Below are positions 36,371 to 56,700 of a DNA stretch of 64,000 bases, piece by piece. Position 1 is the stretch's first letter; each line of letters opens with the position of its first letter. The stretch is taken from NCBI GenBank assembly GCA_937876465.1, contig CALEHV010000044.1:9841-73840 (forward strand), read 5' to 3'. Origin of the DNA: an uncultured Bacillota bacterium. Its GTDB lineage: Bacteria > Bacillota_I > Bacilli_A > RFN20 > CAG-826. The position numbers and the translations under genes are program-made. The notes beneath the pieces were generated by a model, which was not told where the DNA came from, did no database searches, and was given only the letters and a program-made list of their open reading frames with translations.

Positions 36371-36380
36371 TAAATTAGTC

Positions 36381-36446
36381 AAATGGCAAAGCTACAGCAA
36401 TGTAGTGACGCAAAACTATAGGGTCTCTCTGAGATAGCCAGGTGCC
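36381..36446 (+). promoter_or_regulatory. c-di-GMP-I (GEMM-I) riboswitch aptamer, copy 1
   Basis: aaatGGCAAA, then hairpin gctaca-GCAA-tgtagt (GNRA tetraloop), the linker GACGCAAAAC, a second hairpin cta-taggg-tctc-tct-gaga-tag with a 5' internal loop, and gccaggtgcc. This is the two-hairpin GEMM-I layout with the conserved GCAAA/ACGCAAA elements. It lies in a 5' UTR 98 nt upstream of the ATG at 36544. Confidence 0.8.
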
Positions 36447-36543
36447 TAGATTTATGGAAGATCGTTTAACCGGATGATAGGTGATCGATTCCTTAGTAAA
36501 TCGTTGGGACAACATAATCTATTACTAATATTGGAAGTATTAT

Positions 36544-38377: not shown

Positions 38378-39411
38378 GAAAAAGAACTGTTATTGGAATT
38401 GGTACATGTTTAATTGCGATTGCGTTATCTGCAAGCGTACTTTCAACAGTCGCGTGGTATAACGGTTCATCACACTTACAAATCGAGAACTTTAACATTG
38501 GTTTTTCGTCTAAGGAACTTAAAATTTCTACAGATAACGTAGATTTCAAGGATCGCTTAGGTAAAAACGATTTAAACCAAGTTGATAAGTTCATACCTGT
38601 AAGCAGCATGTTTTCATCATTCTGGTTAAATTCTAAACAGGAACAACCTGTATTTAGAAAAGGCTTTGATGAAGAAGAAGTTAGAAAAACTACTTATACA
38701 TCTATTGATGATTACGCAGTTGCTGAAAGTGGATTCTTGTCACAGGTTCTATATTTGAAAAGTGATACAGATGCATCTGCAACTCTAGACATAGAAAAAA
38801 CCTATGTCCGCCCTAACGAAGATGCAAATAATGATATTGCTAATAAATTAGCAAGTAAATATCCTGAAATGTCTCATGAACAGATTGTTAATAATTTAAA
38901 CAAGATTTCTGATTCATTACGTATGTCAATTCTTGTACTTGATGAGGAACAAGAACATGAATTAGACGATTATGCTTATTACATTATCGATCCACATAAA
39001 AATGGAGACACCCTCTATGGTGGACTTTTAGATAATGATTTAGACGGATATTACGATAATTACGATGGAAAAGAAGTGCTCTTTGGTGAAGCGAATAATG
39101 TTAGTGAGTCTACACTTGTGTACACTGATGAAAAAGCTCACCACGAAGGCAAATCTTATTCTATATTTGAAGCATCAACAAAAGATAATGTAAAACATTT
39201 AGACTTAGGAAAATCTGTTGATGCTGGTTTGCAAATTGCAAAAGAAAATTCTCTCAGTTTAGTTGAGTCTCAAGACATTCGAATCTCCCTTAAGACTAAT
39301 GTATCTAAACGAATTGTCTTCTCCCTTTACTTAGAAGGTTGGGATTTAGACAATACAAATTTATCAATGTATGCGCATTTTTATATGAGCCTTGTGTTCA
39401 AACTTGCGTAA
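38374..39411 (+). CDS. secreted protein with SipW-cognate-type signal peptide, paralogue B
   Basis: ..IAIALSASVLSTVAWYNGS.., LDNDLDGYYDNYDGK and C-terminal YLEGWDLDN..FYMSLVFK; ATGA overlap with the upstream ORF. Confidence 0.6.
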   Translation: MRKRTVIGIGTCLIAIALSASVLSTVAWYNGSSHLQIENFNIGFSSKELKISTDNVDFKDRLGKNDLNQVDKFIPVSSMFSSFWLNSKQEQPVFRKGFDEEEVRKTTYTSIDDYAVAESGFLSQVLYLKSDTDASATLDIEKTYVRPNEDANNDIANKLASKYPEMSHEQIVNNLNKISDSLRMSILVLDEEQEHELDDYAYYIIDPHKNGDTLYGGLLDNDLDGYYDNYDGKEVLFGEANNVSESTLVYTDEKAHHEGKSYSIFEASTKDNVKHLDLGKSVDAGLQIAKENSLSLVESQDIRISLKTNVSKRIVFSLYLEGWDLDNTNLSMYAHFYMSLVFKLA

Positions 39412-39434
39412 GGAGAAAAGGAGGCAAATAAAAT

Positions 39435-40970: not shown

Positions 40971-40974
40971 TTTT

Positions 40975-42843
40975 ATGGCTAAGAAATTATCTACTTATCA
41001 AAAATTGCAACGTAGTTACGTAAAGAAAACTAGTTCTTTGTATTCTAAAAACGAAGGCAAAGAAGTTTTCGATATGCTCTCCAAGGGTGAAAACAAATAT
41101 TTAAAACTAAATAGAATGGAAACATCTTCAATGGATATGACATGGATCAAACGTATTGAAGATTGTTTGGGTTCTATTGGAGAAATTGTTCAAAACCCAA
41201 AGAAGACCATTCAAACGTTAACAGAAGTTGTTCAAGTTGAAAAAGTTAAGAAAATTGGAATTGAAACAGTCCAACACCTTTCAAGCCATACTCAATTCAT
41301 TAAGACAGTTGATGAAAACGGAAATGTTACTCCGTCAAAATTATTAAACGTTTTCAATGATGACTACTATGCCATCTACGAAAACAAATTTATTGCTACA
41401 TTATTAAGACATTTAATTGTGTTCGTTGAAAAACGTTACGAATTCGTTATGCAACAAGCAAAAATGACTGATGTCTCTTTGCTTTGGGCTAAGAATCGTA
41501 CTCAAGTAGGCGATGCAGTTATTGAAATTGAAACAAAGGTTCGTTATTCTCAACCAGCTGAACAAGCAGCTGCTGATAAACTCAAAGGTTACATTAAGCA
41601 AATTAAAGATATTAGAAAATATCTCAAATTCTATATGCGAAGTGAATTTATGAATATCTTGAGAAGAGAAAAAGATGTTCGTAATCCAATTTTGCAAACT
41701 AACATTATTCGTAAAAACCCAAAATATCATAAATGTTATTTATTATGGTTATTCATCGAACGTTATAGAGAAGCAGGAATTGAAGCAAAGGTAGAAGAAA
41801 ACTATGCTGATTTAACTAAACAAGAAATTGAAGAATTAAATCAAGTTATGTGTTCTAACTTCTTAGCTTTAAAAGGAAAAGACTTTAAAAAATCTAACAA
41901 GAAACAAAAAGTTTATAAGCCAAAAATCCTTAATACCTATGATGATGTTATCTATAAACCTGCTTATTATGATGGACCGATAGAGTACATTCGTGTGGAT
42001 GATAAATATAGAGAATATAGTGAATCCTTACACGATCTTCCACTTCATCCAACTCGTAAAGTAGCTGAATACGAAGAAGAAAAATACCAAGAGAATAAAG
42101 CCACTAGAGAAAAGACAAAACAAATTGATAGCTTGTTAAAACGTAAAGAAGCTGAAAAAGCAAATTACGAAAAACAAGAAGCTTTAGCTGAGATTAGAGA
42201 AAAAGAAAAAGACGAATACATCAAGGCTAGAGCAGAAAAAGAAATACGTGAAGAAGCAATCGAAAAAGTTGATAAAGCACGTAAAGAATTAATTAAGAAG
42301 GCTAAGAAAACTTCTACAAAGAAAGCCAAACCTGTGGTTAAAAAGGAAGAGCCTAAGAAAGAAGAGGTAAAACCAGAAGTTAAGGTTGAAGAACCTAAAC
42401 CAAAAGTTGAACCTAAGAAAGAAGTTAAGGCAGAACAACCAAAACCAAAGAAGGCTAAACCAAAAGCCGCTCCTAAGAAAGTTAGTAAACCTAAAAAACA
42501 AGTAGAGGAGAAGAAGAGAGAACCAAAACCAGAGGTAAAACCTGAGGTCAAGGTTGAAAAACCAAAGGCAGAGCCAAAGAAGGCTAAACCAAAAGCTGCT
42601 CCTAAGAAAGCAGTCAAGAAGGAAGAGCCTAAAAAAGAAGTTAAGAAGGCTGAACCTAAGAAAGAAGTTAAGGTTGAAAAACCAAAACCAGCTCCTAAGA
42701 AAGTTGTTAAACCAAAAGAACAACCTAAGGAGAAAAAAGTTGAACCTAAAGTACAAGCAAAACCTGTTGTTAAACAAGAAGAACCAAAACAGGTTAAGAA
42801 ACCTTTTGTATTAATTGGAAATTATAGAAACAAGGTGAAATAG
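40975..42843 (+). CDS. McrC/DUF2357-like N-terminal domain protein lacking a recognisable nuclease, with coiled-coil and lysine/proline-rich (histone-H1-like) tail
   Basis: 622 aa with no signal peptide. The N-terminal ~330 aa contain ..VEKVKKIGIETVQHLSSHTQFI..YAIYENKFIATLLRHLIVFVEKRY.., resembling the DUF2357 partner of McrB-like ATPases. Then comes an E/K coiled coil and about 160 aa of KPK/KKE/PKKA repeats. No PD-(D/E)xK motif was found by eye. Confidence 0.45.
   Translation: MAKKLSTYQKLQRSYVKKTSSLYSKNEGKEVFDMLSKGENKYLKLNRMETSSMDMTWIKRIEDCLGSIGEIVQNPKKTIQTLTEVVQVEKVKKIGIETVQHLSSHTQFIKTVDENGNVTPSKLLNVFNDDYYAIYENKFIATLLRHLIVFVEKRYEFVMQQAKMTDVSLLWAKNRTQVGDAVIEIETKVRYSQPAEQAAADKLKGYIKQIKDIRKYLKFYMRSEFMNILRREKDVRNPILQTNIIRKNPKYHKCYLLWLFIERYREAGIEAKVEENYADLTKQEIEELNQVMCSNFLALKGKDFKKSNKKQKVYKPKILNTYDDVIYKPAYYDGPIEYIRVDDKYREYSESLHDLPLHPTRKVAEYEEEKYQENKATREKTKQIDSLLKRKEAEKANYEKQEALAEIREKEKDEYIKARAEKEIREEAIEKVDKARKELIKKAKKTSTKKAKPVVKKEEPKKEEVKPEVKVEEPKPKVEPKKEVKAEQPKPKKAKPKAAPKKVSKPKKQVEEKKREPKPEVKPEVKVEKPKAEPKKAKPKAAPKKAVKKEEPKKEVKKAEPKKEVKVEKPKPAPKKVVKPKEQPKEKKVEPKVQAKPVVKQEEPKQVKKPFVLIGNYRNKVK
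42330..42800 (+). repeat. degenerate in-frame tandem repeats encoding the K/P/E/A/V-rich tail
   Basis: aaggctaaaccaaaagc(c/t)gctcctaagaaag occurs at 42451 and 42580 (129-nt period). The EVKVE(E/K)PKP-coding unit recurs near 42374, 42541 and 42662. Confidence 0.8.
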
Positions 42844-42846
42844 TTG

Positions 42847-43680
42847 ATGGCAAAAAAGCAAAAGAAACCAAAAAGCAAACAACGAAAAATACTTGAGTGG
42901 GTTGCCACTGGTGTCTTTTTAGCTTTAATAGGCACAGTTGCTGGTTTTAGAATTTATCAAGCAGCATCTGGCGATCATGCTATTTTTGGAACTCAGTTTC
43001 CAGTCGTTTTAACAGATTCTATGGAAACCGACTATATGGTCGGCGATGTATTGAAGGTTAAAGCAGTTTCTCCTCAAGAAGTAAAAGAAGCTTTTGATAA
43101 AGGCGAAACTATTGATATTTCATTCAAATGGAATATTGGAACAGCTTCAAAACCAAATATTCAAATGATGACCCATAGAATCATCGATGTAATGTACTTT
43201 GTAAATACAGAAGACAACTACTCTTCTAATTACAAATACAATGCAAATACTTATTCATTTAATAACGATCAATACCATTACACCTTTGTTACTCACGGAA
43301 TCAACAAACATTCTAGCCAAACAAAAGAAGGCGAAGATTTAACAAATCAACTTCAATTTTCAAATGAATCACAATTCGTTGGAAGAGTTACTGGAAAGTC
43401 ACAATTCCTAAGAGTAGCAAACCAAATATTTACATCTGTTTGGACCCTTATCCTTTTAATACTAATTCCTGGATTATATATAGTGATCACCTCTGTTATC
43501 GATTTATTTAAAGCATTTGACGATGACGAGGATACAGAGAAACTTGTTTTAGAAGGCGGTGGAACTACACCCCCTCTAGAAGAGAAGAAGGAAGATCCTT
43601 TAAAAGGGTTAAGCGAAGAAGATAAAGAAAGACTTAAAAAAGAAATGCTTGAAGAACTTTTAAAGAGAGGAAAGAAATAA
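42847..43680 (+). CDS. sipW: archaeal/ER-type signal peptidase I (SipW-like) with C-terminal TM and charged tail
   Basis: An N-terminal TM, the catalytic Ser box VVLTDSMETDYMVGDVLKV (Ser codon 43018-20), the His box MMTHRIIDV, a later FVTHGINK..FVGRV region and a C-terminal TM (VWTLILLILIPGLYIVITSVI). It follows directly after the upstream stop (tag ttg ATG). Confidence 0.7.
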   Translation: MAKKQKKPKSKQRKILEWVATGVFLALIGTVAGFRIYQAASGDHAIFGTQFPVVLTDSMETDYMVGDVLKVKAVSPQEVKEAFDKGETIDISFKWNIGTASKPNIQMMTHRIIDVMYFVNTEDNYSSNYKYNANTYSFNNDQYHYTFVTHGINKHSSQTKEGEDLTNQLQFSNESQFVGRVTGKSQFLRVANQIFTSVWTLILLILIPGLYIVITSVIDLFKAFDDDEDTEKLVLEGGGTTPPLEEKKEDPLKGLSEEDKERLKKEMLEELLKRGKK

Positions 43681-45218
43681 TGCCTACTGTCCGCAAATAT
43701 ACTCGTAAAAGACGTTTAGGTATTGCTTTAGCAGTCATTGTTTGGCTTGCTGTAATAGGTGCTTTTGCAGCCTACCTCATTTTAGATTTGTTCAAAGATA
43801 TAATATGGATAAAAATACTGTTTGCAGTTGTTATCCCTACTGTATCTTTCGGATTACTTGGAATAATTTTAGGTGCAATTCAAAAAAAGAAAGAGCTTGA
43901 AGCTTTGATTGATGATAACGAATATAGATTTGGTAAAGAAACATATTTTTACGACCAAAGTATGTTCATCAAAAAGGTTAATAATTTACGTAAATACAAA
44001 TTTAGAAAACAAGAATGCTATTTAATTACTTTTGTTGTAACTCCAAAGAAGGAATTAAATTCACGCAATCCATATTTCACTCAATTAAATGGCTATATAT
44101 CAGATTACTTTATTGATACTTTCTCAACAAAGAAGATGTTTGGCAAACATAGAGTGGTATATTGCTATGCAAGAGATCATTTCACATTTGCCACATTTAT
44201 GCCTTTAGAAAAAACAATCGAAGTGGTTGATTTAATTAATAGACAAATTTTTGAATTAGTTAAAACTAGAGACATTAAGATTTTCGTTTCTCCTCATTTC
44301 GGTATCGAAAAGATTTCGTGTCCATCATTTAGTAAGGACTATAACCAAGCCTTAGTTGCTCTTAATTACGCAGAACGACATTTTGAAGAATACGCAGTCT
44401 TCTCTAAAGAAATGGTTAAAGAAGCTAACGTTGATGAAATCTTAGAAATTGAAAAAGCTCTTAAAACAAATCAATTTGTTGTTTACTATCAGCCAAAATT
44501 CTCTCTTAAAACAAAAGAGTTTGTTGGAGCCGAAGCTTTAGTTAGATGGAACCATCCTCAAAAAGGAATACTTGGTCCTGGAAAGTTTATTGAAAAAGCC
44601 GAACTTGGTGGTCTTATCCACGATATTGACTTGTATGTCTTTAAAAAAGTTATTTCTGATCTTAAAGAGCAAAAGAAGAATGGCAAGCGCGTATTACCTG
44701 TTTCGACAAACTTCTCGCTATATGAATTTTATTTCCCTAACTTTATTGATGATTTAATTAAATTAGTTTATGACGCAAATATTCAAATTAATTTGCTTGA
44801 AATAGAAATTACAGAAACAACATCTCAAGCATCCACTCTATTAGCTGTTGGTATTTTAAAGAAGTTAAAAGATTATGGCTTTAGAATCTCAATGGATGAT
44901 TTCGGTAGCGGATTTTCTAACCTTTTAGAGTTAAATACACTTCCGATTGATACATTAAAAATTGATAAATCCTTCATAGACGGAATAGCAAGCGATAGAA
45001 AGACAGCAGAAATTGTTAAATACATTATCGCTATGTGTAAGGCAAATGGCCTTGAATCAATTGCTGAAGGGGTTGACTCAAAACAAAAAGTTGACATCTT
45101 ATCGAAGGCTAACTGTGATGTTGTCCAAGGATTTTACTATGCGCAACCAATGCCATTAGATAAATATTTAGAATTTCTTGAAGATAATGACTTTGAGAAG
45201 AAAGGAAACAAAAAATGA
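43680..45218 (+). CDS. membrane-bound degenerate-GGDEF / intact EAL protein (predicted c-di-GMP phosphodiesterase)
   Basis: Two N-terminal TM helices. All EAL-domain catalytic motifs are present: YQPKF..GAEALVRW (EAL codons 44532-40), STNFS, EIEITET, MDDFGSGFSNL, LKIDKSF, AEGVD and VQGFYYAQP. The GGDEF position reads ARDHF. TAATG overlap with sipW. Confidence 0.8.
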   Translation: MPTVRKYTRKRRLGIALAVIVWLAVIGAFAAYLILDLFKDIIWIKILFAVVIPTVSFGLLGIILGAIQKKKELEALIDDNEYRFGKETYFYDQSMFIKKVNNLRKYKFRKQECYLITFVVTPKKELNSRNPYFTQLNGYISDYFIDTFSTKKMFGKHRVVYCYARDHFTFATFMPLEKTIEVVDLINRQIFELVKTRDIKIFVSPHFGIEKISCPSFSKDYNQALVALNYAERHFEEYAVFSKEMVKEANVDEILEIEKALKTNQFVVYYQPKFSLKTKEFVGAEALVRWNHPQKGILGPGKFIEKAELGGLIHDIDLYVFKKVISDLKEQKKNGKRVLPVSTNFSLYEFYFPNFIDDLIKLVYDANIQINLLEIEITETTSQASTLLAVGILKKLKDYGFRISMDDFGSGFSNLLELNTLPIDTLKIDKSFIDGIASDRKTAEIVKYIIAMCKANGLESIAEGVDSKQKVDILSKANCDVVQGFYYAQPMPLDKYLEFLEDNDFEKKGNKK

Positions 45219-45955
45219 TTTTAATTGTTGGTTCAAATCGAGATGATGTTTTGTATTACGAAAGCATTGTTAAAGACGCTAAAGAAGTTGATATTTTAAG
45301 TCGATATCATGTTTTGATTGGCAAAATAGGTTCTCAAGAAATTATTGTTTTGCAAGATATTTACACATCATATGTTTCCTCCTCTGTCTTATGCTATTTA
45401 TTTGAGAAATACGTAATTGACATGGTTATTGTTGTTGGCCGCTGTTCATTGTTGAAAGGTTCAGGTCAGATTGGTGATGTCAGCTTGTGCAGATATTCAA
45501 TGTTTGGCGATGTAGATCAAATTGCTGCAGTTAAAGGAACTCTGTTAGGCCAGATTCCTAATTACCCTCCATACTTTACTGCATATCTAGATGCAAATAA
45601 CTCAATGAAGAAATGCTTGGAAGAAACTTTTGATGGTCAAGTTTTTGAATCAACATATATTTCTTCCTCTTTCTTTAGACAAAATAAAGAAGAAGTTAAA
45701 AATCTTTCTGAAAACGAATATGTTTCATCATTAAGTGGAAACATTGTTTTAGACGGAGAGACAGCAGGAGTTGCTCTTGCATGTAATTTATTTGATATTC
45801 CATTTATTTCTATAAAAGTTGTAGAAGCAAACGGTGGAGAATATACATCCTTAGAAAATTACTTACTTGCTTTGAAACAATATGGTAATGCTGGCAAAGC
45901 AGTAGTTAATTTCATTGTCGAAATGGCTAGAACGGATGTTAACCATCTTGAATAG
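45215..45955 (+). CDS. divergent nucleoside phosphorylase/MTA-SAH nucleosidase-fold (PNP_UDP_1-like) protein
   Basis: It is colinear with Pfs/MtnN (MILIVGSNRDDVL.., ..GETAGVALACNLFDIPFISIKVV..), but the GSAGG-type phosphate/ribose loop reads VGRCSL and the catalytic Asp region (RAISD) reads KVVEA. Confidence 0.5.
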   Translation: MILIVGSNRDDVLYYESIVKDAKEVDILSRYHVLIGKIGSQEIIVLQDIYTSYVSSSVLCYLFEKYVIDMVIVVGRCSLLKGSGQIGDVSLCRYSMFGDVDQIAAVKGTLLGQIPNYPPYFTAYLDANNSMKKCLEETFDGQVFESTYISSSFFRQNKEEVKNLSENEYVSSLSGNIVLDGETAGVALACNLFDIPFISIKVVEANGGEYTSLENYLLALKQYGNAGKAVVNFIVEMARTDVNHLE

Positions 45956-45960
45956 GAGGA

Positions 45961-48900
45961 ATGACTATGAAGAAAAATTCTAAACGAGATATTATTACTC
46001 TTAAAAGTTATCTAAAACGTCACGTTATTCTTCTTTTAGTGATGTGCCTTTTATTCTTGTTACTTATTGGCTTAGTTGTAGTTTCGTCAATCTTATTAAA
46101 AGACGACATGATTCTTTATGTCTTGTATGGTTGCTGTGGAGTATTCTTAATTGCTCTTGTGGTCATGTTTATAGTCTTTAATGTTAGATTCTTTAGAATC
46201 ATGTATAACGACGCATTAATGGTTTCTAAACGTAATTTTGAAGCATTAGCAAACTTTGATAAAGAATTAGAATATTGTTCACGTAACGACTTTGCAGAAT
46301 TTAGAGAACTAAATAGTTCTTTTAAAGACTTATCAAAGAACTTGGATGGAAGAACAATTATTTCTAAAGCGTTAAGCTACGACTCAATTGAACTTGAATA
46401 TTTAGATGAAGAAAAATATCAAGTCAAAGAATCTTCTTTAAAGAATAAAATCGGAGAATTGATTCTTGCTCGAGAATCCTTTAGAAACGCCTTAATTGAT
46501 ATTAGTTATGATTTACGTGACGAAACAATTAATGAGAAAGATCACGAAGTAATCTTAAAGTATATAAAGAATAATTTGCCGTATGATCACACATTAGTTG
46601 CTTTAAAAGATAACGCGCAAGGATATTTGATTTATATACCTGCTCTTGATAGCGTTTCTCAAATTAAAGAAGAACTATCTTCCTTGATGAAGAATATTTC
46701 ACTTATTAAAAAGGTTAACGCTAATAGAACAATTGTTAGCCCATCTGTTTCAATGGTTATGTATCCTTATTCAGACATAGACAATCTGTTTAATGATTTA
46801 AGCTATGCAAAGAGAAGCAAATTACCTCTTAATTTCTATATCCCTAAGCGTAAGGATGAGAAGAACAAAAAGATGCTTGTGTCTTCTTTAAACATGAACA
46901 ACGTCTTTAGATTGCAAGAACAAATATCTTCAATTGATACTTCTCCAGATAACTATGATAAGAATCTAAAACTTATTTATGAGATGGTTAAAGAAATCTC
47001 TAACTACTATAACTTCTCCTGTGGTGGATGTATTTTCTTCGATCACGAAAAGAATGGATTCTATTCCAAATTTAGTCATAGTCCAACGAATTCTTCCATA
47101 TTTAAAGATAACGTTCGTATAAACAAAGAATTCGTTAATGTTGTTGTTGAAGTAGCCGATATAGACAACAGTTATTACTTCTCATCTCGTAAACACGTTA
47201 ACGATGATTTTGCTCACTTTATGGACAAATATCATATTAAATCTGGATTGTTCTATGTTGTTAAAACTAATAATAACGTAATTGGACTTCTTTACTTTGT
47301 TAAGAAGTCATCAGATTTAATGTTTGATTCATTCATGAAAGAAAATTTAATTACTTCGTGTTCTTTAATTAGTAATTTCTTTAAGGAAACAAATTCAATT
47401 AAATTAGCTTCTGTCATGTCAAATAGATTTAACGACATGGTTAAATTCTCCAATTCGTTGATTTACTCAATTGATAAAGAAACATATGAAATTGCTATGT
47501 TAAGCGATTCGTTAAGACGCTTGCTACCGAAAGTTCAAGCTGGAGATAAATGTTATAAGGCGTTGTATGATTTAGACGCCCCATGTAAGAATTGTCCTTT
47601 ATTGAAGAACAAACATATGATTTCATCCTTGTGCGGTGGAAATTATGAATCTATGAGAATCTTGCAAATTAAGAATGATTCATCTGCTCATATCTTATTG
47701 AAATCAAACGATAATAAGTTCACATATGAACGTTATGACCAAGAAACGCTTCTTGCAACATTCTTCTCGTTTAAAGAAACGATGGAGAAATATTTGTCAG
47801 TTGGTTTATTAGGAAACGTTTTATTCGTCTCTGTAAAGAATATACAGGATATCATTAACGACATAGGAAATGCAGGTTTTGCTAACGCTTTGAAACAATT
47901 CTGTAATGGAGTAGTTGGCATCTATCAAAAAATGATTGATGTTTATTATTATTCTAAAGACACAATAGCTCTTATTATGCCTAATTCTTCTAGAGAAGAC
48001 TTAGTTAACCTTGCTGAGGCTATTTCAGATGGCGAAATAGAAGTTAAGGTCAATGATAAAGATATACGCTTGAATTTGGTTTATTTAGCAAAAGCCTATA
48101 CAAACGAACAAACATTTGAACAACTTGTTGAAACATTTGAAGAAAACCTTATTCAAGTACGTAGTATGCCAGTCGATGAGATTTACTTTGTTGATGCAAA
48201 TTACAAACGTAATGCTTCTAAAGAAGGTTACTTATTCGAAACCTTACAAGACGCATTCGAAAACAAAACATTCCAAGTCTATTTCCAACCAATTGTTAGA
48301 AACTCAGATCGTCTTATTGAAGGTTCGGAGTTGCTCTTAAAGGTCTTTGACCAAGAGGCAAATGCTTATATTGATATTGCACACGCTCTTCAAGTAGCTG
48401 AGAAGCGCGGATACACTTCTAATATCGCTTTAGGATTGCTTGATTACGTTGAAGGAATAATCAAAAAATATGGTTTTACATTCTTCTTAACAAGTGGACT
48501 TAATCACTTATCTTTAAACATTAATCACACATTCTTAAAAGATGGAAATTTCATCAATAAATGCTCAAAAATTGTATCTGAAAATTCACTTCCAAAAGGA
48601 TTCCTATCCTTCGAAATTGATGAAGAAGACGCAGCCAACAATTTAGATGTATTTACTTCAGTTAAGAAAGAAATTGAAGATGCTGGATGCTTGCTTTTAT
48701 GCGATAACTTTAGAGGTGAATTCACAAGTCCTAAAGTATTAGCTGAAGCCGGTTTCAGCGGAGTTAAGATTGACTCTAATCTCGTTGAAATCATTAGAGA
48801 TGGTGAAACAAATAAACGCATCATGAACATCTGGAGCGATGTTGTAAAAGCTCATATCAATATCTTCTTTACCGGTGTTGCAACACGTATTATTTCAGAA

Positions 48901-49026
48901 GAAATTGTCTTTGAAGATCATGATTCTTACGTTCAAGGAAACTACTTCTTCGCTCCTCAAAGTGAAGAGGAAATGTTTGAATCAATCCGTCAACGTAACA
49001 TGAAAGATAAGGAAATGGACAATTAG
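45961..49026 (+). CDS. large membrane protein: 2 TM + ~500-aa unknown region with Cys cluster + degenerate GGDEF + degenerate EAL (c-di-GMP receptor candidate)
   Basis: TM helices are at the N-terminus, with a Cys cluster CYKALYDLDAPCKNCP...LCGG (about 47551-47640). The GGDEF position reads YSKDT. The EAL domain is recognisable (FQVYFQPIV..) but reads ELL (48328-36) rather than EAL, DNFRG (48703-) rather than DDFG(T/S)G and FTGVAT rather than AEGVE. The better-spaced start is the ATG at 45967, after SD aggagg. Confidence 0.65.
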   Translation: MTMKKNSKRDIITLKSYLKRHVILLLVMCLLFLLLIGLVVVSSILLKDDMILYVLYGCCGVFLIALVVMFIVFNVRFFRIMYNDALMVSKRNFEALANFDKELEYCSRNDFAEFRELNSSFKDLSKNLDGRTIISKALSYDSIELEYLDEEKYQVKESSLKNKIGELILARESFRNALIDISYDLRDETINEKDHEVILKYIKNNLPYDHTLVALKDNAQGYLIYIPALDSVSQIKEELSSLMKNISLIKKVNANRTIVSPSVSMVMYPYSDIDNLFNDLSYAKRSKLPLNFYIPKRKDEKNKKMLVSSLNMNNVFRLQEQISSIDTSPDNYDKNLKLIYEMVKEISNYYNFSCGGCIFFDHEKNGFYSKFSHSPTNSSIFKDNVRINKEFVNVVVEVADIDNSYYFSSRKHVNDDFAHFMDKYHIKSGLFYVVKTNNNVIGLLYFVKKSSDLMFDSFMKENLITSCSLISNFFKETNSIKLASVMSNRFNDMVKFSNSLIYSIDKETYEIAMLSDSLRRLLPKVQAGDKCYKALYDLDAPCKNCPLLKNKHMISSLCGGNYESMRILQIKNDSSAHILLKSNDNKFTYERYDQETLLATFFSFKETMEKYLSVGLLGNVLFVSVKNIQDIINDIGNAGFANALKQFCNGVVGIYQKMIDVYYYSKDTIALIMPNSSREDLVNLAEAISDGEIEVKVNDKDIRLNLVYLAKAYTNEQTFEQLVETFEENLIQVRSMPVDEIYFVDANYKRNASKEGYLFETLQDAFENKTFQVYFQPIVRNSDRLIEGSELLLKVFDQEANAYIDIAHALQVAEKRGYTSNIALGLLDYVEGIIKKYGFTFFLTSGLNHLSLNINHTFLKDGNFINKCSKIVSENSLPKGFLSFEIDEEDAANNLDVFTSVKKEIEDAGCLLLCDNFRGEFTSPKVLAEAGFSGVKIDSNLVEIIRDGETNKRIMNIWSDVVKAHINIFFTGVATRIISEEIVFEDHDSYVQGNYFFAPQSEEEMFESIRQRNMKDKEMDN

Positions 49027-49040
49027 CCCAAAAATGAATA

Positions 49041-49073
49041 AAGATGTGTAAAATTACACATCTTTTTCTTTTG
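49041..49073 (+). terminator. rho-independent terminator ending the ten-gene operon
   Basis: Stem aagatgtgta (49041-50) / tacacatctt (49055-64), loop aaat, then tttctttt. Confidence 0.85.
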
Positions 49074-49167
49074 TTCGGATTTTATTGTTTTAGGCCAAAA
49101 TTAGCTTAAAAAAGCAAAAAATTTTTACATCGGTTTATTTATAAAATAAATAAGTTATGTTTCTCTC

Positions 49168-49179
49168 GCGTATATACGC
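49168..49179. promoter_or_regulatory. perfect palindrome GCGTAT-ATACGC: candidate operator, site 3
   Basis: It ends 11 nt upstream of the -35 hexamer, the same geometry as site 2, and has the same half-site family GCGYAT. Confidence 0.45.
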
Positions 49180-49189
49180 TATGTGAGAT

Positions 49190-49218
49190 TTGTATTTTGA
49201 TACCAATATATGTAATAT
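49190..49218 (+). promoter_or_regulatory. candidate sigma-A promoter of the giant-adhesin operon
   Basis: ttgtat (49190-95), a 17-nt spacer and taatat (49213-18). The predicted TSS is about 49225, just 5' of riboswitch copy 2. Confidence 0.55.
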
Positions 49219-49233
49219 ATAAGTAAAGATAGA

Positions 49234-49299
49234 AAATAGCAAAACTACAGCAATGTAGTGACGCAAAACTAAAGGGTCTCTAAGAGATAGCCAGCTGCC
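49234..49299 (+). promoter_or_regulatory. c-di-GMP-I (GEMM-I) riboswitch aptamer, copy 2
   Basis: It aligns without gaps to copy 1 with 6 substitutions in 66 nt (manual alignment), and has the same GCAA-capped hairpin, GACGCAAAAC linker and second hairpin. Confidence 0.8.
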
Positions 49300-49333
49300 T
49301 ATAAGAATTTGTCGGTGTCTGGCTTTTTAATTT
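49289..49333 (+). terminator. intrinsic terminator forming the expression platform of riboswitch copy 2
   Basis: agccag (49289-94, the 3' part of the aptamer) pairs with ctggct (49319-24). The stem is extended by tgcc/ggtg (C-G and G.U pairs) and followed by ttttaattt. Aptamer folding and terminator folding are therefore mutually exclusive. Confidence 0.65.
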
Positions 49334-49354
49334 ATAGCTAGAGAAAGGGTAGCA

Positions 49355-52300
49355 ATGAATCGTCTTCAAAAAAAGATTATTACAATTGCGTTAGCGTTAG
49401 GTAACATTGTTTTATCGTGCGTCGTTGCTGCTACTGCTACATACGCTTGGTTTAAAGCTAGTAATGCTACAATTACAACTCAATCCGCTTCTACAACAAT
49501 CAAATCTGAAGCTGGTGGTTCAACACTTCAATGGGAAATCTTAAAGTTTGATGATAACGAGAAGAAAGGAATTTCATATAGAGAAAACGATGAGTTCTTC
49601 CTTCAACCTTACGATCAATACTTAACTGCTAAAAATAAACATACAAACGTTATTCTTTGGGCCGATGTAATGGTTTCCAATTTTACTAGTGCAAATCAAT
49701 TGTATGTTGATATTGAGTGTTCTCCAGATCATGACCCTGTTTATTCAAGTACAGCCACACCTGAAGAAAAGGTTCCAAGCTATACCTCAAATATATGTCA
49801 ATTCAAATCGACAGTTTACTCATATACTGATGCAGATGATAACGAAGTTGTAGTTAATGATGTCTTAGATAACACAAACGCTGCTACTCGTTATGAAACC
49901 ACAACAAACTTCTTTGCCGGAATTAAAACTCCAGGGACACGATTTGTTGCATTACATAACAGCACTCCAAACAAAGATCATTCAATTACCCTTTGTCCAA
50001 ATTTTGATATTGGTGCATCAACTGCCAAGAAAATTACAATTGCAGTTGAATGTTCATATAACGAAAAATTAGTTGCTCACTATGCTAATGGTCGTTTAGG
50101 CACGATTAATTTAGCAGGCGACATTACAAGTTTTAATTTTCGCACAGGCGCATCATACAGTGGTGCATACGTCAAAGTCACAAATCAATCACAGTTAGAT
50201 ACATCAGGCCGTTATATGATTACTTATGACGGAACAGAGTATGCTGGTGATGATATGAAAGCTGCTTTTAATGGTAGCGGAACATCTTCAGAGGATTTCA
50301 CTGGAAAATTAAACTATCGAGATGTCTTTGCTCGTAAAGGTAGAATTACCGAGACCGAAGTTACTCATGCACAATCCTGGGATTACAACATCGCAGACAG
50401 TAAGTTAACATCCAATTCCGGATATGTAGTTGGTGCTACAGGTTCAGGAATGGGCGCTTCAAAATCCGGTTCTTATACAAACACACTTACTTACAATTCT
50501 GGATTAGTAGATACAGGATCTAATTCAAAATATTTAAATCACAATGCTACTGCTGGTGGCACCAAATATAACTATTACGATTCAGCTTCTGGAACAAAGA
50601 GAAAATCTCCAGAATTTTATCGTTATGATGCAAGCGCATTTGGTGACATGATTTTGTCCGGAATTCAATTAGGCGGTTCAATTAATCACCAATTAGAAAA
50701 GGGCCAACCATTTAGTTATGGTGGTACAGTTACTGCTGTTTATAACGAAGGCACAGCTTCTGAATTTACAGAGAATATTCCTGTTAACGATCCAAACTTA
50801 TCCTTTACTGGATACGATATGAATAATGACGGTAACTATCTTGTTACTGTTTCCTATACAGATGTAGAAGACAATATTACTGTTACAGCAAATTACAACT
50901 TAGAGGTTTATACTCCTGAAGCTACTTTAGTTAGCTTATCAATTGCTGGTCAACAAACCCAATTCGTTGAAGGAGATACATTTACTTTAGGCGATAATGC
51001 TGTTATTACTGCTCATTATAGTGATGGTACAAATCCTGTAATTCAAAACAACGATTCACGTTTGACTATTAATGGTCCTACACAACAGCAAATGGATACC
51101 GAAGGAACATATGAAGTTAATATCTCATTTAATGATGGTACAACAACTAAATCTATTGAACCTTATGATATTGAAGTTGTTGCTCAGACAGCAGCTGTAT
51201 ATCAAAGAATAACTTCTACTTCAGATTTAACAAATGGAACTTATCTTTTTGTCCATGAAAATAATAGTGTCGCATTAAATGGTGGACTTTCAACAATTGA
51301 TGTTGTGTCTAATACAATTTCTGTTTCAATTAGTAATTATCAAATTGAGGCAACAGCGGAAGTTGATGCTGCTGCTTTTACATATAATTCAACAACAAAG
51401 TATTTTATGAACGCTAATAATAAATATCTTTCAAACAGTAGCGATATTGATTTAGTTGATACTGGAGTTGCTCATAATGTTTCTTTTGATTCGGATAACG
51501 CAATTATTAAAATTGGAACAGAAAGTAGCTCACCTAGATTACGTTTTAACAATAATGATGGTCAAAAACGTTTTAGATATTATACAAATGACAACATGGA
51601 CGCAATCCAACTTTATAAAAAAGTAAATGTATCACCATTAACTTCCATCACTTTAAGTAACACAACAAACACATATTATACAGGTGATACTTTTGTTAAT
51701 CCTACAATCACTGCTCATTATAAAAATGGAACTCAAAACAACATTGATCCTTCTCAATGTAGTATTGTTGACCAAGCAACAGGCTCAAGCCCTGATTTAA
51801 CAACAGCTGGAGTAAAGACTATTGAAGTTTCATATACTGAAAATGGTGTTACAAAATCAGATACTTATGACATTACAGTTACACAGACATTGCCAATTTC
51901 TTTAACTAACCTCAGTGGTTATAAGACACAGTTCTATACAGGTGATACTTTTGTTATTGATTCTTCAGGAAATTCTTTCTCTGCTTTAGTTACTTATAAT
52001 AGTCCGGCTACAAAAACAGTCCATTCATCTGATGTCTCTCATTCAACTCCAGACATGAGTACAGCTGGACAAAAAACAATTACAATTTCCTATACAGAAA
52101 ACGGAACAACAGTTAGTGCTACATATAATATTACAGTTACTCAAAAAGCAATATCTTCAATTGCAGTAACTACAATGCCTAGTAAAACAACATATACTCA
52201 AGGTGAATCTCTAAGTACATCTGGTATCACTGTTACTGCAACATATAATAATGGCAGTCAAGAAAACGTTACATCTGGTTGTACATACAGCCCAACAACT

Positions 52301-53701
52301 TTAAATACTGTTGGCACACAAGCCATTACAGTTACACATACAGCATCTGGTAAGACAACTACATTCAATGTTACTGTCAAAGCTCCTGTAGTTTTAACTG
52401 GTATTGAATGTAGTGGATATACTGAAGAATATACTGTTGGAGATACATATCAATTTGATGCGACTGTAACAGCCAGCTATTCAGATGGTTCTTCACATAC
52501 AGTTACTCCAACCAGTGTTAATCCATCCACAATTGATACTTCGACAGATGGAGATCATACTATCACAGTCTCTTATACCGAAGGCAGTGTTACAAAAACT
52601 GATTCGTACACAGTTTCGGTTGTTGCAGGATCATCTACAACTTCTGTAACATTCGATTTCAAAAATAATAGTTACAGTTTAGCTACATCTCAAAGTGGAA
52701 GTAAAACTGCTGAAACTGGTGCTGCCAATATGACTATTAATAATTATGCATATAACACTTCAAACAAAGAAGTTCGATTGTATAAGTCAAATAGTAATTA
52801 TGGTGGAACCTCTAAAATGGTTTTCACAATTGATGAATCAAAGGTTATTAAATCAATTGTTATAACTGGAGCGGGTGCAGCCAACTTATCTCTTGGAGCT
52901 GGTGGCGGATCTTACAGCAATGGAACATGGACCGGTTCATCAACAAGTGTCACAATTCAAAACAACACTTCTTCAACGCAAGCCATTTATACAATTACAA
53001 TTACATACGAAAGTGGATCCACTCCTACCCCTGCAAGTATTTCTGTTAGCCCAACTACATTAAGCATGACTGTTGGCGGATCAGATCAAACTATTACTGC
53101 AACTACTTCAGGTGGCTCCGGAGGAAGTATTGAATGGTCTTCAACCAATACTTCTGTTGCAACAGTTGCAGGTGGAACCGTTCATGCTGTTGCTGCTGGT
53201 TCAGCGACAATTAAAGCCAATTATGAAGGCGCTGAAGCAACTTGCGAGGTTACAGTAACAGGAAGTTCTAGTGGAACAACAGTAAGTATTTCTTCATTTA
53301 GTTCTATATCAGGCAATATTGGTAGTGGTTCTATTGTTAGTTATTCGGCGTATAAAGGCGGAGGAACAAGTGGTCCAGCTGTAAATGATGGAGCAATTAG
53401 ACTATATCAAAATAGTAGTGGAAGTACCGGAGGATATGTTGTTATCGGAGTTTCGTCTGGACATAAAATTAAATCAGTAACCATTAAGTCTACAATGGGA
53501 ACAACAACTGGATATTATTTAGGAAATCCAGGAAGTACAACACCAAGTAAGAGTTCGTTTGAAGTAAGCAACTATAGTTTATCTGCAAATGCAGAATATA
53601 CTGTAAGCGACCTTGATACACAGTATATTACCTTTGCCTGTTTTGGTACATCAAGTAGCACACGATTGTACTTGTCATATATTTCTGTAACTTATTTATA
53701 A
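49355..53701 (+). CDS. giant (1448 aa) secreted multidomain adhesin-like protein with SipW-cognate-type signal peptide
   Basis: ..VVAATATYAWFKASNA... It carries six Ig-like repeats, one Big_2-type domain (ISVSPTTLSMTVGG..VHAVAAGSATIKA..CEVTV, about 53038-53262) and two copies each of two unassigned modules. No LPXTG or other wall-anchor motif is present. Confidence 0.75.
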   Translation: MNRLQKKIITIALALGNIVLSCVVAATATYAWFKASNATITTQSASTTIKSEAGGSTLQWEILKFDDNEKKGISYRENDEFFLQPYDQYLTAKNKHTNVILWADVMVSNFTSANQLYVDIECSPDHDPVYSSTATPEEKVPSYTSNICQFKSTVYSYTDADDNEVVVNDVLDNTNAATRYETTTNFFAGIKTPGTRFVALHNSTPNKDHSITLCPNFDIGASTAKKITIAVECSYNEKLVAHYANGRLGTINLAGDITSFNFRTGASYSGAYVKVTNQSQLDTSGRYMITYDGTEYAGDDMKAAFNGSGTSSEDFTGKLNYRDVFARKGRITETEVTHAQSWDYNIADSKLTSNSGYVVGATGSGMGASKSGSYTNTLTYNSGLVDTGSNSKYLNHNATAGGTKYNYYDSASGTKRKSPEFYRYDASAFGDMILSGIQLGGSINHQLEKGQPFSYGGTVTAVYNEGTASEFTENIPVNDPNLSFTGYDMNNDGNYLVTVSYTDVEDNITVTANYNLEVYTPEATLVSLSIAGQQTQFVEGDTFTLGDNAVITAHYSDGTNPVIQNNDSRLTINGPTQQQMDTEGTYEVNISFNDGTTTKSIEPYDIEVVAQTAAVYQRITSTSDLTNGTYLFVHENNSVALNGGLSTIDVVSNTISVSISNYQIEATAEVDAAAFTYNSTTKYFMNANNKYLSNSSDIDLVDTGVAHNVSFDSDNAIIKIGTESSSPRLRFNNNDGQKRFRYYTNDNMDAIQLYKKVNVSPLTSITLSNTTNTYYTGDTFVNPTITAHYKNGTQNNIDPSQCSIVDQATGSSPDLTTAGVKTIEVSYTENGVTKSDTYDITVTQTLPISLTNLSGYKTQFYTGDTFVIDSSGNSFSALVTYNSPATKTVHSSDVSHSTPDMSTAGQKTITISYTENGTTVSATYNITVTQKAISSIAVTTMPSKTTYTQGESLSTSGITVTATYNNGSQENVTSGCTYSPTTLNTVGTQAITVTHTASGKTTTFNVTVKAPVVLTGIECSGYTEEYTVGDTYQFDATVTASYSDGSSHTVTPTSVNPSTIDTSTDGDHTITVSYTEGSVTKTDSYTVSVVAGSSTTSVTFDFKNNSYSLATSQSGSKTAETGAANMTINNYAYNTSNKEVRLYKSNSNYGGTSKMVFTIDESKVIKSIVITGAGAANLSLGAGGGSYSNGTWTGSSTSVTIQNNTSSTQAIYTITITYESGSTPTPASISVSPTTLSMTVGGSDQTITATTSGGSGGSIEWSSTNTSVATVAGGTVHAVAAGSATIKANYEGAEATCEVTVTGSSSGTTVSISSFSSISGNIGSGSIVSYSAYKGGGTSGPAVNDGAIRLYQNSSGSTGGYVVIGVSSGHKIKSVTIKSTMGTTTGYYLGNPGSTTPSKSSFEVSNYSLSANAEYTVSDLDTQYITFACFGTSSSTRLYLSYISVTYL
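50650..51186 (+). repeat. two Ig-like (Big_3-like) protein repeats, ~85-90 aa each
   Basis: Pattern ..G(D/Q).F....V(T/I)A.Y..GT........(L/F)...G.D.....G.Y.V.(V/I)S(Y/F)......(T/S).......(V/I)(E/V)V. Confidence 0.6.
51626..52625 (+). repeat. four tandem Ig-like (Big_3-like) protein repeats, ~80-85 aa each
   Basis: A recurrent motif, e.g. YTGDTF...ITAHYKNGT...PDLTTAGVKTIEVSYTENGVTKSDTYDITVTQ, PDMSTAGQKTITISYTENGTTVSATYNITVTQ, LNTVGTQAITVTHTASGKTTTFNVTV and IDTSTDGDHTITVSYTEGSVTKTDSYTVSV. Confidence 0.7.
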
Positions 53702-53716
53702 AATGAAAGGAGAGAC

Positions 53717-56700
53717 ATGCTTAGATTATTAAAAAAGAACAAATTAATTATAGCACTATCATTATTCTTAATGAGTGGCGTAACAGCAGTAGTAGTTTCT
53801 ACTATTGCATGGTTTAAGGATGTCAGCATGTTTTCTCCATCAAATGCTTCTAGCTCTGTTATCACTAATTACTTTGACTCAGGAAAAGGAACACAAGCTG
53901 ATCCTCTCGTTATAACAAGACCAATACATTATTACAATCTCGTTTATCTACAAGAAACAAATCCTACTATTGAAGCAATTAGCGCTCAACCATTTGCTGA
54001 TTCAGTACTTTATTTCCAATTTGGTAAAAAAGATATTGACGGCAATGGTGGAACAGGCGATGAGAATATTTACAAATTCTATAACTATGGAGACGATGGA
54101 ACATTGCAATATAACGCTCAAGGCGATGAAACATATTCTCCAATTCTAAATATGAATTACTATAGTGGAACACGCGCTTTACCTCCATTAGGTTCAAGCA
54201 CACATCCATTTAAAGGACATATTGTTGGAAACAACTTAACTGTTTCAAAATTACACATTAATGGTGAAGGGTATTCAGATATTGGTATTTTTGGTTATGT
54301 AGCTCAAGGCGCTACTGTTTCAAATTTATATTTTGAAGCACCTTATATTGATGCCGGCAAAAATGATTGTACTAAGACCGGATCAAGTGGACACGATCCA
54401 CATCCAACCCACACATATATTGGGTATTTGGCTGGTCACGTTTACCAAGCTAACTCATCGTTCTCTAACGTTTACGTTAATAACTGTGAATTAGAAAATA
54501 CAACAGGCAATCAAAGTGAAATGATTAATACTTATGGTTATTTCGGCCACGTTGATTTGCCATCTGATATTCAAACAGAATCAGCAAGCTATTCTGCGGA
54601 AGCAAAAGCAAGCGATATCTATAACGCTGTAAACGGCTCTTATTCTGATGCAAGTAGTCAATCGGTTGTTTCAAGAAATACTTCTTACACTCCTAGCGGA
54701 ACATATGGTTCAGCGGTTACTAATTCCGGTGGCACTTATAATATGGGAAGTTATTCAGCCAACAATCCATATTCTTTATCAACCATCGGATATACTGGCG
54801 GCGAATCAGTTAACATGAATATCCGTTATAAGATTTCCGAAGGAAATCTAAACCCATTAGACATTAATACTACTCAATTAGATTCAAAACCAACCGAAGA
54901 AGAGTGGAAACAAAAAGATGATGGATCATATGTTTATTGGGATTCAGCAAATAGTAAATGGACTTATGCAAAAGTTGAATCGCATTCTTCTGGAGAAGAA
55001 GTAACGGTAGATTACAATTGCTTTACAATTTCATATACTTATAATTCAAAGAATTACTTCTTGAGATACGATAATGGTAATTTAGGATGCGCTCAAATCG
55101 ATTTGAATGCAAGCGGTGACCCAGTAACAACTTTAGGTGACGATTATTATTTCGTCTTTAAGAAAACCGAAGGCTCTAAAGGTATTGAAGAATTTACTTC
55201 AAATTCAAATAGTGCCTCCGTATACATTTACTCTCCTGCATATCAAAAGTATCTGTATATACAAGAAGTGTCTTCTAGTAATGAATATACTCCTCAATTT
55301 ATTGATACAGCAGAATTGAAGTTTAATATTTCCGGACAACCAACAACAGAAATTTCAACAGTTTTAGGTTCCTACACCGATGCTCTCCATGGTGAAAGCC
55401 ATGTTTGGAGTAATAGAAAAACATCTACAAATCCAGGCACAACATTTACAATTGGAAAACCTGGCACTAGATCAAGTGTTGTTGGTTCAGAATATAATCT
55501 TATTACTAGTTCAACTGGTGTTCACGCTGGTGATGTTGTTGTTATTGCAACAGGATTTGATGTTGGTAAGAGCCATTCGTATAGTGGCTATTATGTAATG
55601 ACTGGTCAAAACACAAATAACCGTTCAGCCGAATTAACTACTGTAGTTAATAATAAATTAACACCGATACCAGGAGCTGCCGAATTCCTTATTGGAGACG
55701 GTTCCAGTGTTGTAGAAGATTCCTATACTTTCTTTGATCAATCTTCTACTTATAAAGAAGATAATAGTGGTTATCTTTATGCTTCTAGTAGTAACAGCAA
55801 CTATATGAACACCAACAAATTAAGTACTGCTGGAGATAACGCCTATGCAACCATTAATATTGACGCAAACGGATATGCTGAAATACGTTTCCAAGGTCCA
55901 AGTACGCGTGACTATATGTATTTTAACTCAAACACTCAGGGCACATATCCAAATTATTCTCAATTTAGTCCTTTATTCTCATGTTATGGATATAAATCTG
56001 TGGGTAGTAGTTTAACTGCTATTGGATATGATGATTCGCATAACCAATTCCATTATCCTAAATTATTTAAAAAGACAGAAATTCACGGTAGTGATGAAGA
56101 TTATTCAACTTGTGTTGTTAGAAGATACACTTCATACGCCCCTATTGAACAGACCGTAACACCATACGATATGTTTACCGCCCCATTATCTGCAGATGCT
56201 GATAATCCAGCAAGTTATTCGTCTACCCCATTTAACGTTAATCCTGATAAAGATGTCACGTTTATATTCGCTTCTTCAAGAGTTTCTTTTACTGGTTCTA
56301 GCGAAACATATTGGGCAAAAGTTACTAACCAATCAGAGATTACTTCAGGCGATAAATATTTAATTGTTAGTGAAGACGATGGAGTTGCGTTTGATGGCTC
56401 TTTAACAGCGCTTGATGCGGGTAAAAACAAGATTTCGGTTACAATTTCAGATTCTAAGATTACTGAAAATGCCACCGCTTTAATTGCAAGTTCGTTTACA
56501 ATTTCAACAGTAACTGGAGGATATTCAATCCAATCTTCCAGCGGATATTATATTGGCTCCTCATCTACTGGTAATCAACTTAAAACAAGTACATCATATA
56601 GTGCTAGTACCTATCTGAATACAATTTCTATTGACACAAATTCTAATGCAACAATTAAGGCAGGTGGAACAGAAAATCAAACATTGGCTTATAACTCTGT

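Follow-up and report, generated by a model that had tools for sequence, protein, structure and literature searches.

A predicted c-di-GMP-I (GEMM-I) riboswitch of the transcriptional ON type upstream of an operon for two giant secreted proteins in an uncultured Bacillota bacterium

In this study, we concluded that positions 49228-49333 of the window (the whole 64,000-nt stretch of DNA that was analysed, from an uncultured Bacillota bacterium) probably form a c-di-GMP-I (GEMM-I) riboswitch that acts on transcription as an ON switch, a reading built on covariance-model matches, folding energies and comparison with related leaders. The element, referred to here as copy 2, is the second of two GEMM-I elements in the window and lies directly before an operon encoding two giant secreted proteins. 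The identity of its ligand and the direction of its response in vivo are what we infer from this evidence, and both are weighed below.

The GEMM-I call of the initial annotation held up when it was checked against the covariance model. Rfam cmscan matched 49228-49302 (+ strand) to RF01051 (c-di-GMP-I, GEMM-I) with 57.2 bits and an E-value of 1.5e-08, compared with a gathering score of 35, and the match spanned model positions 1-87, that is, the full length of the model. A second RF01051 match, at 36375-36449 on the + strand (53.6 bits), is copy 1, and one tRNA together with these two aptamers made up the three gathering-level Rfam matches in the window. The two copies are the only GEMM-I elements in the whole 1.37-Mb, 97%-complete assembly.

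On the Rfam alignment, all on the + strand, copy 2 has a P1 helix of 4 bp (AUAG, 49229-49232, with CUAU, 49299-49302), a junction strand J1/2 (AAAAU, 49233-49237), an adenine at the position equivalent to G20 of Vc2 (A49238, Rfam model position 11), a P2 helix with a GCAA loop (49239-49264), the A47-equivalent A49265 directly after the P2-closing C, a short P3 (49267-49296) in which the distal part of the model with its tetraloop receptor is deleted, and the C92-equivalent C49298, the first C of an invariant GCC. Absence of the distal P3 and its tetraloop receptor is usual with GYRA loops, and a 5-nt J1/2 before position 20 is presumably a feature of Vc2 as well. The aptamer had been drawn from 49234; its start is at 49228/49229, so that the 5' strand of P1 fell outside the earlier box. 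The three-helix junction of P1, GNRA-capped P2 and P3 is thus present, as are A47 and C92 (Vc2 numbering), whose roles as ligand contacts have been described (PMC6140456, PMC5888326). A49238 stands immediately 5' of the P2-closing G-C pair and 27 nt from the junction adenine, and the same 27-nt spacing is found in Vc2 (20/47) and in Gs1761 (14/41, from A14 to A41) (PMC6140456, PMC5888326). The G that RF01051 carries at position 20 is A49238 in copy 2; in Vc2, this nucleotide reads the Hoogsteen face of Galpha (PMC6140456, PMC5888326). Because natural members of the family with A here are known (GEMM-Ib, Cbe 1-2 and, if its A11 is the equivalent position, Bc2), the substitution changes the expected affinity or specificity, not family membership. 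Judged by its sequence, the region is a genuine GEMM-I riboswitch of the ordinary type, and it is predicted to bind c-di-GMP.

The evidence for an ON switch begins with the terminator. AGCCAG (49289-49294) and CTGGCT (49319-49324), followed by TTTTAATTT (49325-49333), were found exactly as annotated, and the reported distance of 27 nt to the ATG at 49355 is correct when measured from the last T of the first T-run (49328). The terminator proposed to compete with the aptamer proved real, but its extent had been understated as a 6-bp stem: the intrinsic terminator hairpin at 49289-49324 (+ strand) has 14 bp and two 1x1 mismatches. From the outside, it consists of the 6 bp between AGCCAG and CUGGCU, a C.U mismatch, 4 bp between UGCC (49296-49299) and GGUG (49314-49317), a U.C mismatch, and 4 bp between AUAA (49301-49304) and UUGU (49309-49312) closing a GAAU loop, and its energy is -14.3 kcal/mol for the full hairpin vs -6.1 kcal/mol for the outer 6-bp stem alone. 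The U-run that follows at 49325-49333 on the same strand reads UUUUAAUUU. The initial annotation had divided AGCCAG into two nucleotides of its hairpin 2 and four flanking ones; on the Rfam alignment, all six belong to the 3' strand of P3. The whole 5' arm of the terminator (49289-49304) is made of an AG bulge and the entire lower 3' strand of P3, a G, the C92-equivalent, the entire 3' strand of P1 and two further nucleotides. Nucleotides 49289-49302 are therefore common to aptamer and terminator, and the two structures are mutually exclusive. This is the layout of an ON-type expression platform, a G+C-containing hairpin and then a U-run with the 5' arm inside the aptamer. An OFF switch was considered and rejected, since a separate antiterminator is lacking and the aptamer itself supplies the 5' arm of the terminator.

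Folding energies point in the same direction. The minimum free energy structure of 49226-49336 (-26.5 kcal/mol) consists of P2, the upper P3 hairpin and the terminator. The complete aptamer secondary structure reaches only -9.4 kcal/mol, short of the -12.2 kcal/mol of P2 and upper P3 by themselves, so lower P3 and P1 would need energy from the ligand or from tertiary contacts. The calculated energetics without ligand thus favour the terminator, as is expected for a default-OFF switch that is turned ON by its ligand. Counted against the ON reading are the length of P1, only 4 bp in copy 2, and the A at position 20, since in Vc2 this nucleotide weakens c-di-GMP binding and admits cGAMP (PMC6140456). 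The terminator is also among the weakest of its kind, at about -14 kcal/mol vs a median of -19 kcal/mol (rank 10 of 63 ON-type leaders), and its C.U mismatch at arm position 7 occurs in none of the nine other orthologues. Since the terminator is weak and carries this mismatch, regulation by copy 2 may be leaky.

Considering these results, we propose a model for the switch that we regard as likely. Transcription would start at about 49225 from a weak sigma-70-type promoter, so that the mRNA would begin with the aptamer. In the unbound RNA, P2 and upper P3 would stay formed while the intrinsic terminator arises from pairing of the strand AGCCAGCUGCCUAUAA (49289-49304) with 49309-49324, and the polymerase would halt in the U-run, about 27 nt short of the ATG, leaving the operon off. 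Binding of c-di-GMP at the three-way junction (A49238, A49265, C49298) would lock lower P3 and the 4-bp P1, keep the strand from the terminator and allow read-through into the genes of the two giant secreted proteins (49355-57637). Only about 10-22 nt separate the point at which P1 is complete (49302) from that at which the terminator 3' arm is (49324), and the switch is for this reason probably under kinetic control. Upstream of the ATG, a Shine-Dalgarno-like GAAAGGG (49343-49349, + strand, from reading of the sequence) leaves 5 nt before the start codon. As a separate observation, this Shine-Dalgarno sequence falls in the loop of a small hairpin, GCUA(GAGAAAGGG)UAGC, in the segment 49331-49361, immediately ahead of the ATG; two other genomes (G023 and G019) have comparable hairpins, and the other orthologues lack them.

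Comparison with related leaders also supported this design. GEMM-I elements were present in 16 of the 37 species genomes of the genus (all those in the collection), several of them with two copies 12-13 kb apart on one strand, as here. A set chosen independently of terminator complementarity was assembled from orthologues of the 1448-aa gene downstream of copy 2 (36-51% identity over the N-terminal 300 aa); these came from a protein homologue search, and a query of the genome contigs with the first 500 aa returned no relatives. The ten orthologous leaders (five from genomes of the genus and five from metagenome contigs) were aligned with MAFFT and were not fitted to any structure. All ten have the aptamer and an overlapping terminator before a giant Big_3 protein, with a gene for an EAL protein of about 1010 aa or another gene as upstream neighbour. 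The six orthologue contigs that were read all carry a GEMM-I-clan aptamer; four have the order EAL gene, intergenic region, giant Big_3 protein and second giant protein, and in two the upstream gene is different or unannotated. Aptamer pair cells were 93% paired across the ten leaders vs 25-45% with slid partners, and seven aptamer pairs showed compensatory change (three in P1, three in P2 and one in P3). The terminator helix was 97% paired in the same alignment, its single unpaired cell being the C.U of the window at arm position 7, and RNAalifold independently predicted P2, upper P3 and an 11-bp terminator from the ten sequences. Taken together, the physical overlap, the thermodynamics that favour the terminator and a layout kept in all ten orthologous leaders lend strong in silico support to the ON direction that had been predicted for copy 2.

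A wider sample of relatives gave a similar picture. A terminator complement followed by a T-run (at least 9 of 11 nt complementary to AGCCAGYUGCC, within 130 nt) was found in 33 of 50 GEMM-I leaders vs 3.9% of shuffled downstream sequences. In a loop-excised alignment of these 33 leaders, the terminator helix was 94% paired vs 14-52% when slid, a figure that is partly so by construction because the 3' arms were picked by complementarity, which does not apply to the covariation or the T-run. Three terminator pairs were compensatory in this set: U-A/C-G at arm position 7, G-C/A-U at position 9 and C-G/A-U at position 11. A metagenome scan with the core pattern gave 88 further stretches, of which 80 were kept as loci, many with the same platform, and the leaders concerned precede either proteins with an N-terminal hydrophobic segment and an AWF motif or the first gene of a fibre operon. 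The copy-2 leader design is common in rumen, gut and digester metagenomes. Two other kinds of leader were seen alongside this design. The genus has a second class of GEMM-I leaders with G at position 20 and a separate downstream terminator instead of an overlapping one, which are probably OFF switches by their sequence layout; they precede membrane proteins of about 490 aa (MERKRRFRIP...) in several genomes (G009:C7, G021:C83, G011:C52, G020:C68 at 77-156, G009:C10 at 2121-2201; loci L041, L042, L045, L046, L049), and the genome of the window has none. In addition, two orthologous aptamers (L222 at 572-653 and L224 at 572-652) had RF03167 (c-di-GMP-I-GGC) as their best match, with 62-63 bits vs a cut-off of 59. 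They keep GACGCAAAG, the standard sequence around position 47, and the match looks like a cross-hit of the model rather than a binding-site variant.

Copies 1 and 2 had been annotated as near-duplicates, and their gap-free alignment with six differences in 66 nt was reproduced (36381-36446 vs 49234-49299). The four substitutions that had been assigned to structural elements kept their places on the Rfam alignment: two in the P3 loop (UCU vs UAA), one in the P3 internal loop and one that converts a G.U to an A-U pair, which is the first pair of the GCAA-capped P2 stem. The remaining two were correctly reported as differences, but their placement in flanks of unclear pairing did not stand, and they can now be assigned to position 20 and to lower P3. 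The first (G36385 to A49238) is the ligand contact at Vc2 position 20 and had been missed in the first reading; the second (G36442 to C49295) is a lower-P3 position that is non-canonical in both copies and in copy 2 also forms the C.U mismatch of the terminator. The description of the substitutions as structure-neutral is therefore accurate for base pairing but not for the nucleotide that contacts Galpha, which changed from G20 to A20. Because one substitution exchanges this nucleotide, the two copies are, as far as their sequences indicate, unlikely to be functionally equivalent in affinity or specificity.

The change at position 20 bears directly on the ligand. In Vc2, the G20A mutation lowers c-di-GMP affinity from picomolar to 53 nM and allows binding of 3',3'-cGAMP at 120 nM, and among riboswitches with a natural A, specificity extends from binding of both ligands (Cbe 1-2) to selectivity for cGAMP (Geobacter) (PMC6140456, PMC6456294). 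It can thus be asked whether copy 2 is GEMM-Ib-like or bispecific, with 3',3'-cGAMP as its physiological ligand, alone or together with c-di-GMP, and with the same ON design. A49238 aligns with Rfam model position 11, that is, with Vc2 G20, and has the A of GEMM-Ib; the Vc2 G20A mutant binds the two ligands about equally (PMC6140456), natural A-variants of both kinds exist as noted above, and A is the majority in ON-type leaders of the clade. Among 114 distinct clade leaders, those with ON-type platforms had 44 A and 14 G at position 20 (A20 in 44 of 58) and the rest had 20 A and 26 G, counts that are descriptive only because the sequences are related. The genome, however, offers no sign that the organism makes 3',3'-cGAMP, the other mark of GEMM-Ib. 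A search of the 97%-complete MAG for SMODS/CD-NTase (PF18144) gave no match. Hypr enzymes, which make cGAMP, have Ser at GacA position 348 (PMC6456294), and the sole GGDEF protein of this genome has the canonical Asp there and an intact GGDEF motif; its sequence runs from an Asn to an Asp nine residues on and to GGDEF 26 residues after that Asp (GHEYGD ... RIGGDEF). Moreover, the ten orthologous leaders of the 1448-aa gene are split evenly at position 20 (five A, five G), which fits one shared ligand tolerated by both variants. We tentatively take A11 of Bc2 to be the position-20 equivalent, since position 11 of the Rfam model is. [quoted passage not shown] A physiological role of cGAMP at copy 2 is therefore, in our view, quite unlikely. 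With one canonical GGDEF cyclase and without a recognisable cGAMP synthase, the genome makes c-di-GMP the likely ligand of copy 2. By analogy with the variants studied elsewhere, it is a reasonable prediction that copy 2 would sense c-di-GMP with lower affinity than copy 1 and would show cross-reaction with cGAMP in vitro.

Copy 1 (36375-36449, + strand; G at position 20), which heads the operon at 36544-49026, has lost part of this design. It has a consensus promoter (TTGACA-18-TATAAT, 36341-36370, + strand, from the sequence), and no aptamer-overlapping terminator was found for it at 36450-36560. All of its orthologues keep a perfect overlapping terminator (GGCAACTGGCTTTT); where they read GGATGATAGGCAACTGGCTTTT, the window has GGATGATAGGTGATCGATTCC without a T-run. 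The terminator-equivalent segment of copy 1 in this genome reads GGTGATCGATTCC, and the T-run is absent. In the minimum free energy fold of the copy-1 leader, AGCCA (36436-36440) pairs with UGGUU (36545-36549) at the start codon, which might provide translational control, or nothing. A loose fold-based detector flagged a copy-1 terminator that was rejected as this same long-range AGCCA/UGGUU pairing over 110 nt, and the span of the detector was limited to 80 nt for the clade-wide ON-type counts. Between the terminator position and the ribosome-binding site of copy 1, we also observed a box, TTGGGACAAYAATAATCTA (36504-36521; also at L009 and L010-type loci), that every copy-1-type leader of the genus keeps and that recurs in many contigs from metagenomes. 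The copy-1 aptamer is most similar to copy 2 of its own genome (90%), the two being near-closest relatives of each other, and it shares the short P3 of copy-2-type aptamers, while P3 in most copy-1 orthologues is 13-17 nt longer. This similarity and the copy-2-type P3 suggest, from a small sample, intragenomic conversion between the two copies, which fits their description as near-duplicates; another genome (G022) has the same pattern of within-genome similarity between its copies (88%).

The state of copy 1 raises the question of whether copy 2 is itself a decaying or decoupled remnant, whose aptamer controls nothing and whose hairpin is a constitutive partial attenuator or inert. A genome reduced to 1.37 Mb in which the first copy lost a terminator kept by all its orthologues could harbour such a remnant, and the weak copy-2 terminator with its unique C.U mismatch would agree with one. 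Against this, the conserved junction nucleotides and helices of the aptamer are all intact and score highly, the terminator retains 14 bp and its U-run, the cyclase and one EAL protein look intact, and the design is kept across all orthologues. We therefore regard decay of copy 2 as very unlikely and retain the functional ON switch as the preferred reading.

The promoter assigned to copy 2 was recognised by alignment with the orthologous leaders, which share TTGnnn-17-TA(A/G)AAT ending 8-9 nt before P1. The predicted promoter of the window lies in the same register (-35 TTGTAT at 49190-49195, a 17-nt spacer and -10 TAATAT at 49213-49218; 49190-49218, + strand); a consensus scan of the + strand found no promoter for copy 2, since its -35 box matches the consensus at only three of six positions. 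The sequence places the transcription start at about 49225, and the aptamer would thus begin the transcript. A strong bidirectional terminator at 49040-49065 separates the copy-2 unit from the upstream EAL gene. A perfect palindrome, GCGTATATACGC (49168-49179, without strand), 10 nt upstream of the -35 box, is by its sequence a candidate operator or activator site. It lies within a terminator-like hairpin (49164-49188), which was rejected as part of the riboswitch because the hairpin precedes the predicted -35 box and includes the palindrome. The copy-1 promoter has a palindrome of its own (GCGCAT-T-ATGCGC, 36317-36329), so that in both copies the palindromes are 10-12 nt upstream of the -35 boxes, and CGCGTATA-like palindromes also occur upstream of orthologous promoters, which may reflect a shared transcription-factor site. 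It is highly improbable that a transcription factor at the GCGTATATACGC palindrome exerts the main control of the operon while the riboswitch fine-tunes it, an arrangement that would be compatible with the ON switch and is suggested by related palindromes that precede the promoters of copy 1, copy 2 and the orthologues by similar distances, but that involves a palindrome family only loosely conserved in sequence and a purely hypothetical factor and leaves the conserved overlap of aptamer and terminator unexplained.

Copy 2 would regulate two genes. The first (49355-53701, + strand) encodes a 1448-aa secreted Ig-repeat protein in which Pfam domains Big_3 (three) and Big_2 were recognised, and the second (53717-57637, + strand), 15 nt after it and with conserved synteny, encodes a 1306-aa protein with no Pfam family. 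At the N-terminus of each, a basic stretch leads into a hydrophobic helix and then (Y/I)AWFK: the hydrophobic segment of the first is followed by ATYAWFKA, and the second has the same signal type with STIAWFKD. The two giant proteins resemble each other in this signal region only, and N-termini of this kind are also encoded by the majority of the remaining GEMM-I-controlled genes in the clade. When Pfam was run with relaxed E-values, neither protein gave a match in its N-terminal 300 aa, and the NCBIfam model of the SipW-cognate signal matched neither N-terminus; the term SipW-type signal would thus denote motif resemblance only. With its Big_3 and Big_2 domains and its secretion signal, the first protein is plausibly an adhesin. 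The operon headed by copy 1 encodes a SipW-like signal peptidase (42844-43680; 40.9 bits, below the curated cut-offs of 190 bits), an AAA_5/McrB-like protein and two EAL proteins, and the locus combines a fibre operon of the SipW/CoCoPALM type with an operon of giant secreted proteins.

The c-di-GMP machinery of the genome is small: a single GGDEF protein, two clear EAL proteins that are both encoded by the copy-1 operon, and one sub-threshold EAL match; a PilZ domain was found nowhere in the genome. The GGDEF protein (G000:C29; L052, 799-1932) is 377 aa long, with several membrane passes at its N-terminus and a canonical RIGGDEF, and no riboswitch precedes its gene. As a canonical cyclase and EAL proteins are encoded, c-di-GMP is probably made and degraded in this organism, and with these few proteins, no PilZ and two riboswitches, the recognisable c-di-GMP output is concentrated on this locus. 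As a tentative extension that we consider doubtful, the whole c-di-GMP network might act only through the two riboswitches of this locus: copy 1, with G20 and its terminator lost, would be mostly constitutive or act at translation and would provide the phosphodiesterase feedback, true gating of output by c-di-GMP would fall to copy 2 alone, with its A20, lower affinity and weak terminator, and A or G at position 20 would serve as an evolutionary dial for the switching threshold of the adhesin.

Taken alone, copy 2 is an ordinary riboswitch, since GEMM-I ON switches with overlapping terminators before adhesins are experimentally established (Bc2/cap). Its value lies in its context, which offers c-di-GMP as a testable input for a SipW/McrBC-like (CoCoPALM) fibre locus with its two giant secreted proteins. 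Neither c-di-GMP nor riboswitches are mentioned in the publication that introduced the name CoCoPALM (PMC11090510), and a literature search found no report that links SipW/TasA systems to c-di-GMP riboswitches. The unusually minimal c-di-GMP circuitry makes this a clean natural system for second-messenger signalling by riboswitches only, and the natural toggling between A and G at position 20 in the orthologous leaders of one gene is a ready series for work on affinity and threshold in ON switches. Relative to the initial annotation, the present analysis adds the full extent of the terminator, the P1 helix, the promoter, A20, the weak and mismatched nature of the terminator and the conserved context of the locus.

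Several characterised systems can be set beside copy 2. The leader of flgB in Clostridioides difficile (Cd1) has the same aptamer class, comes from a Firmicute and also acts by transcription termination, but it is an OFF switch: there, aptamer and terminator form together, in competition with an antiterminator, whereas in copy 2 the terminator itself competes with the aptamer (PMC9262584). Vc2 from Vibrio cholerae shares the three-helix junction, the GNRA-capped P2 and the A47 and C92 equivalents (PMC6140456, PMC5888326); its G20 and its long P3, which bears a tetraloop receptor, contrast with A20, a GCAA tetraloop and the lack of distal P3 and receptor in copy 2. The closest known systems are pilM and Bc2/cap. 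The GEMM-Ib riboswitch of pilM (Gmet_0970, Geobacter metallireducens) is likewise a transcriptional ON switch in which aptamer and terminator are mutually exclusive (PMC9262584), with a short ligand-binding interval (25 nt in pilM) (PMC9262584, PMC6456294), A at position 20, a short P3 and a distance of 61 nt from position 20 to the C contact (60 nt in copy 2). It differs in being selective for 3',3'-cGAMP made by a Hypr GGDEF enzyme, whereas the genome of copy 2 has a canonical GGDEF only and no CD-NTase was found in it. Bc2 of B. thuringiensis BMB171 is an ON GEMM-I riboswitch before cap, which encodes a collagen adhesion protein, and as in copy 2, an intrinsic terminator comes directly after the GEMM-I aptamer and shortly ahead of a large surface-adhesion gene (a putative one in the case of copy 2), with an A (A11) among the conserved ligand-binding nucleotides of Bc2 (PMC4933901). 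For Bc2, c-di-GMP was shown to raise read-through both in vitro and in vivo (PMC4933901), whereas the response of copy 2 is a prediction. Further differences are that Bc2 belongs to a cultured Bacillus from another branch of the phylum and lies 76 nt from its transcription start, whereas copy 2 comes from the MAG of an uncultured gut or rumen member of the Bacilli with a reduced genome, has its aptamer at the predicted 5' end of the transcript, and has as its target a two-gene operon with AWF-type signals next to a locus of the SipW/CoCoPALM type.
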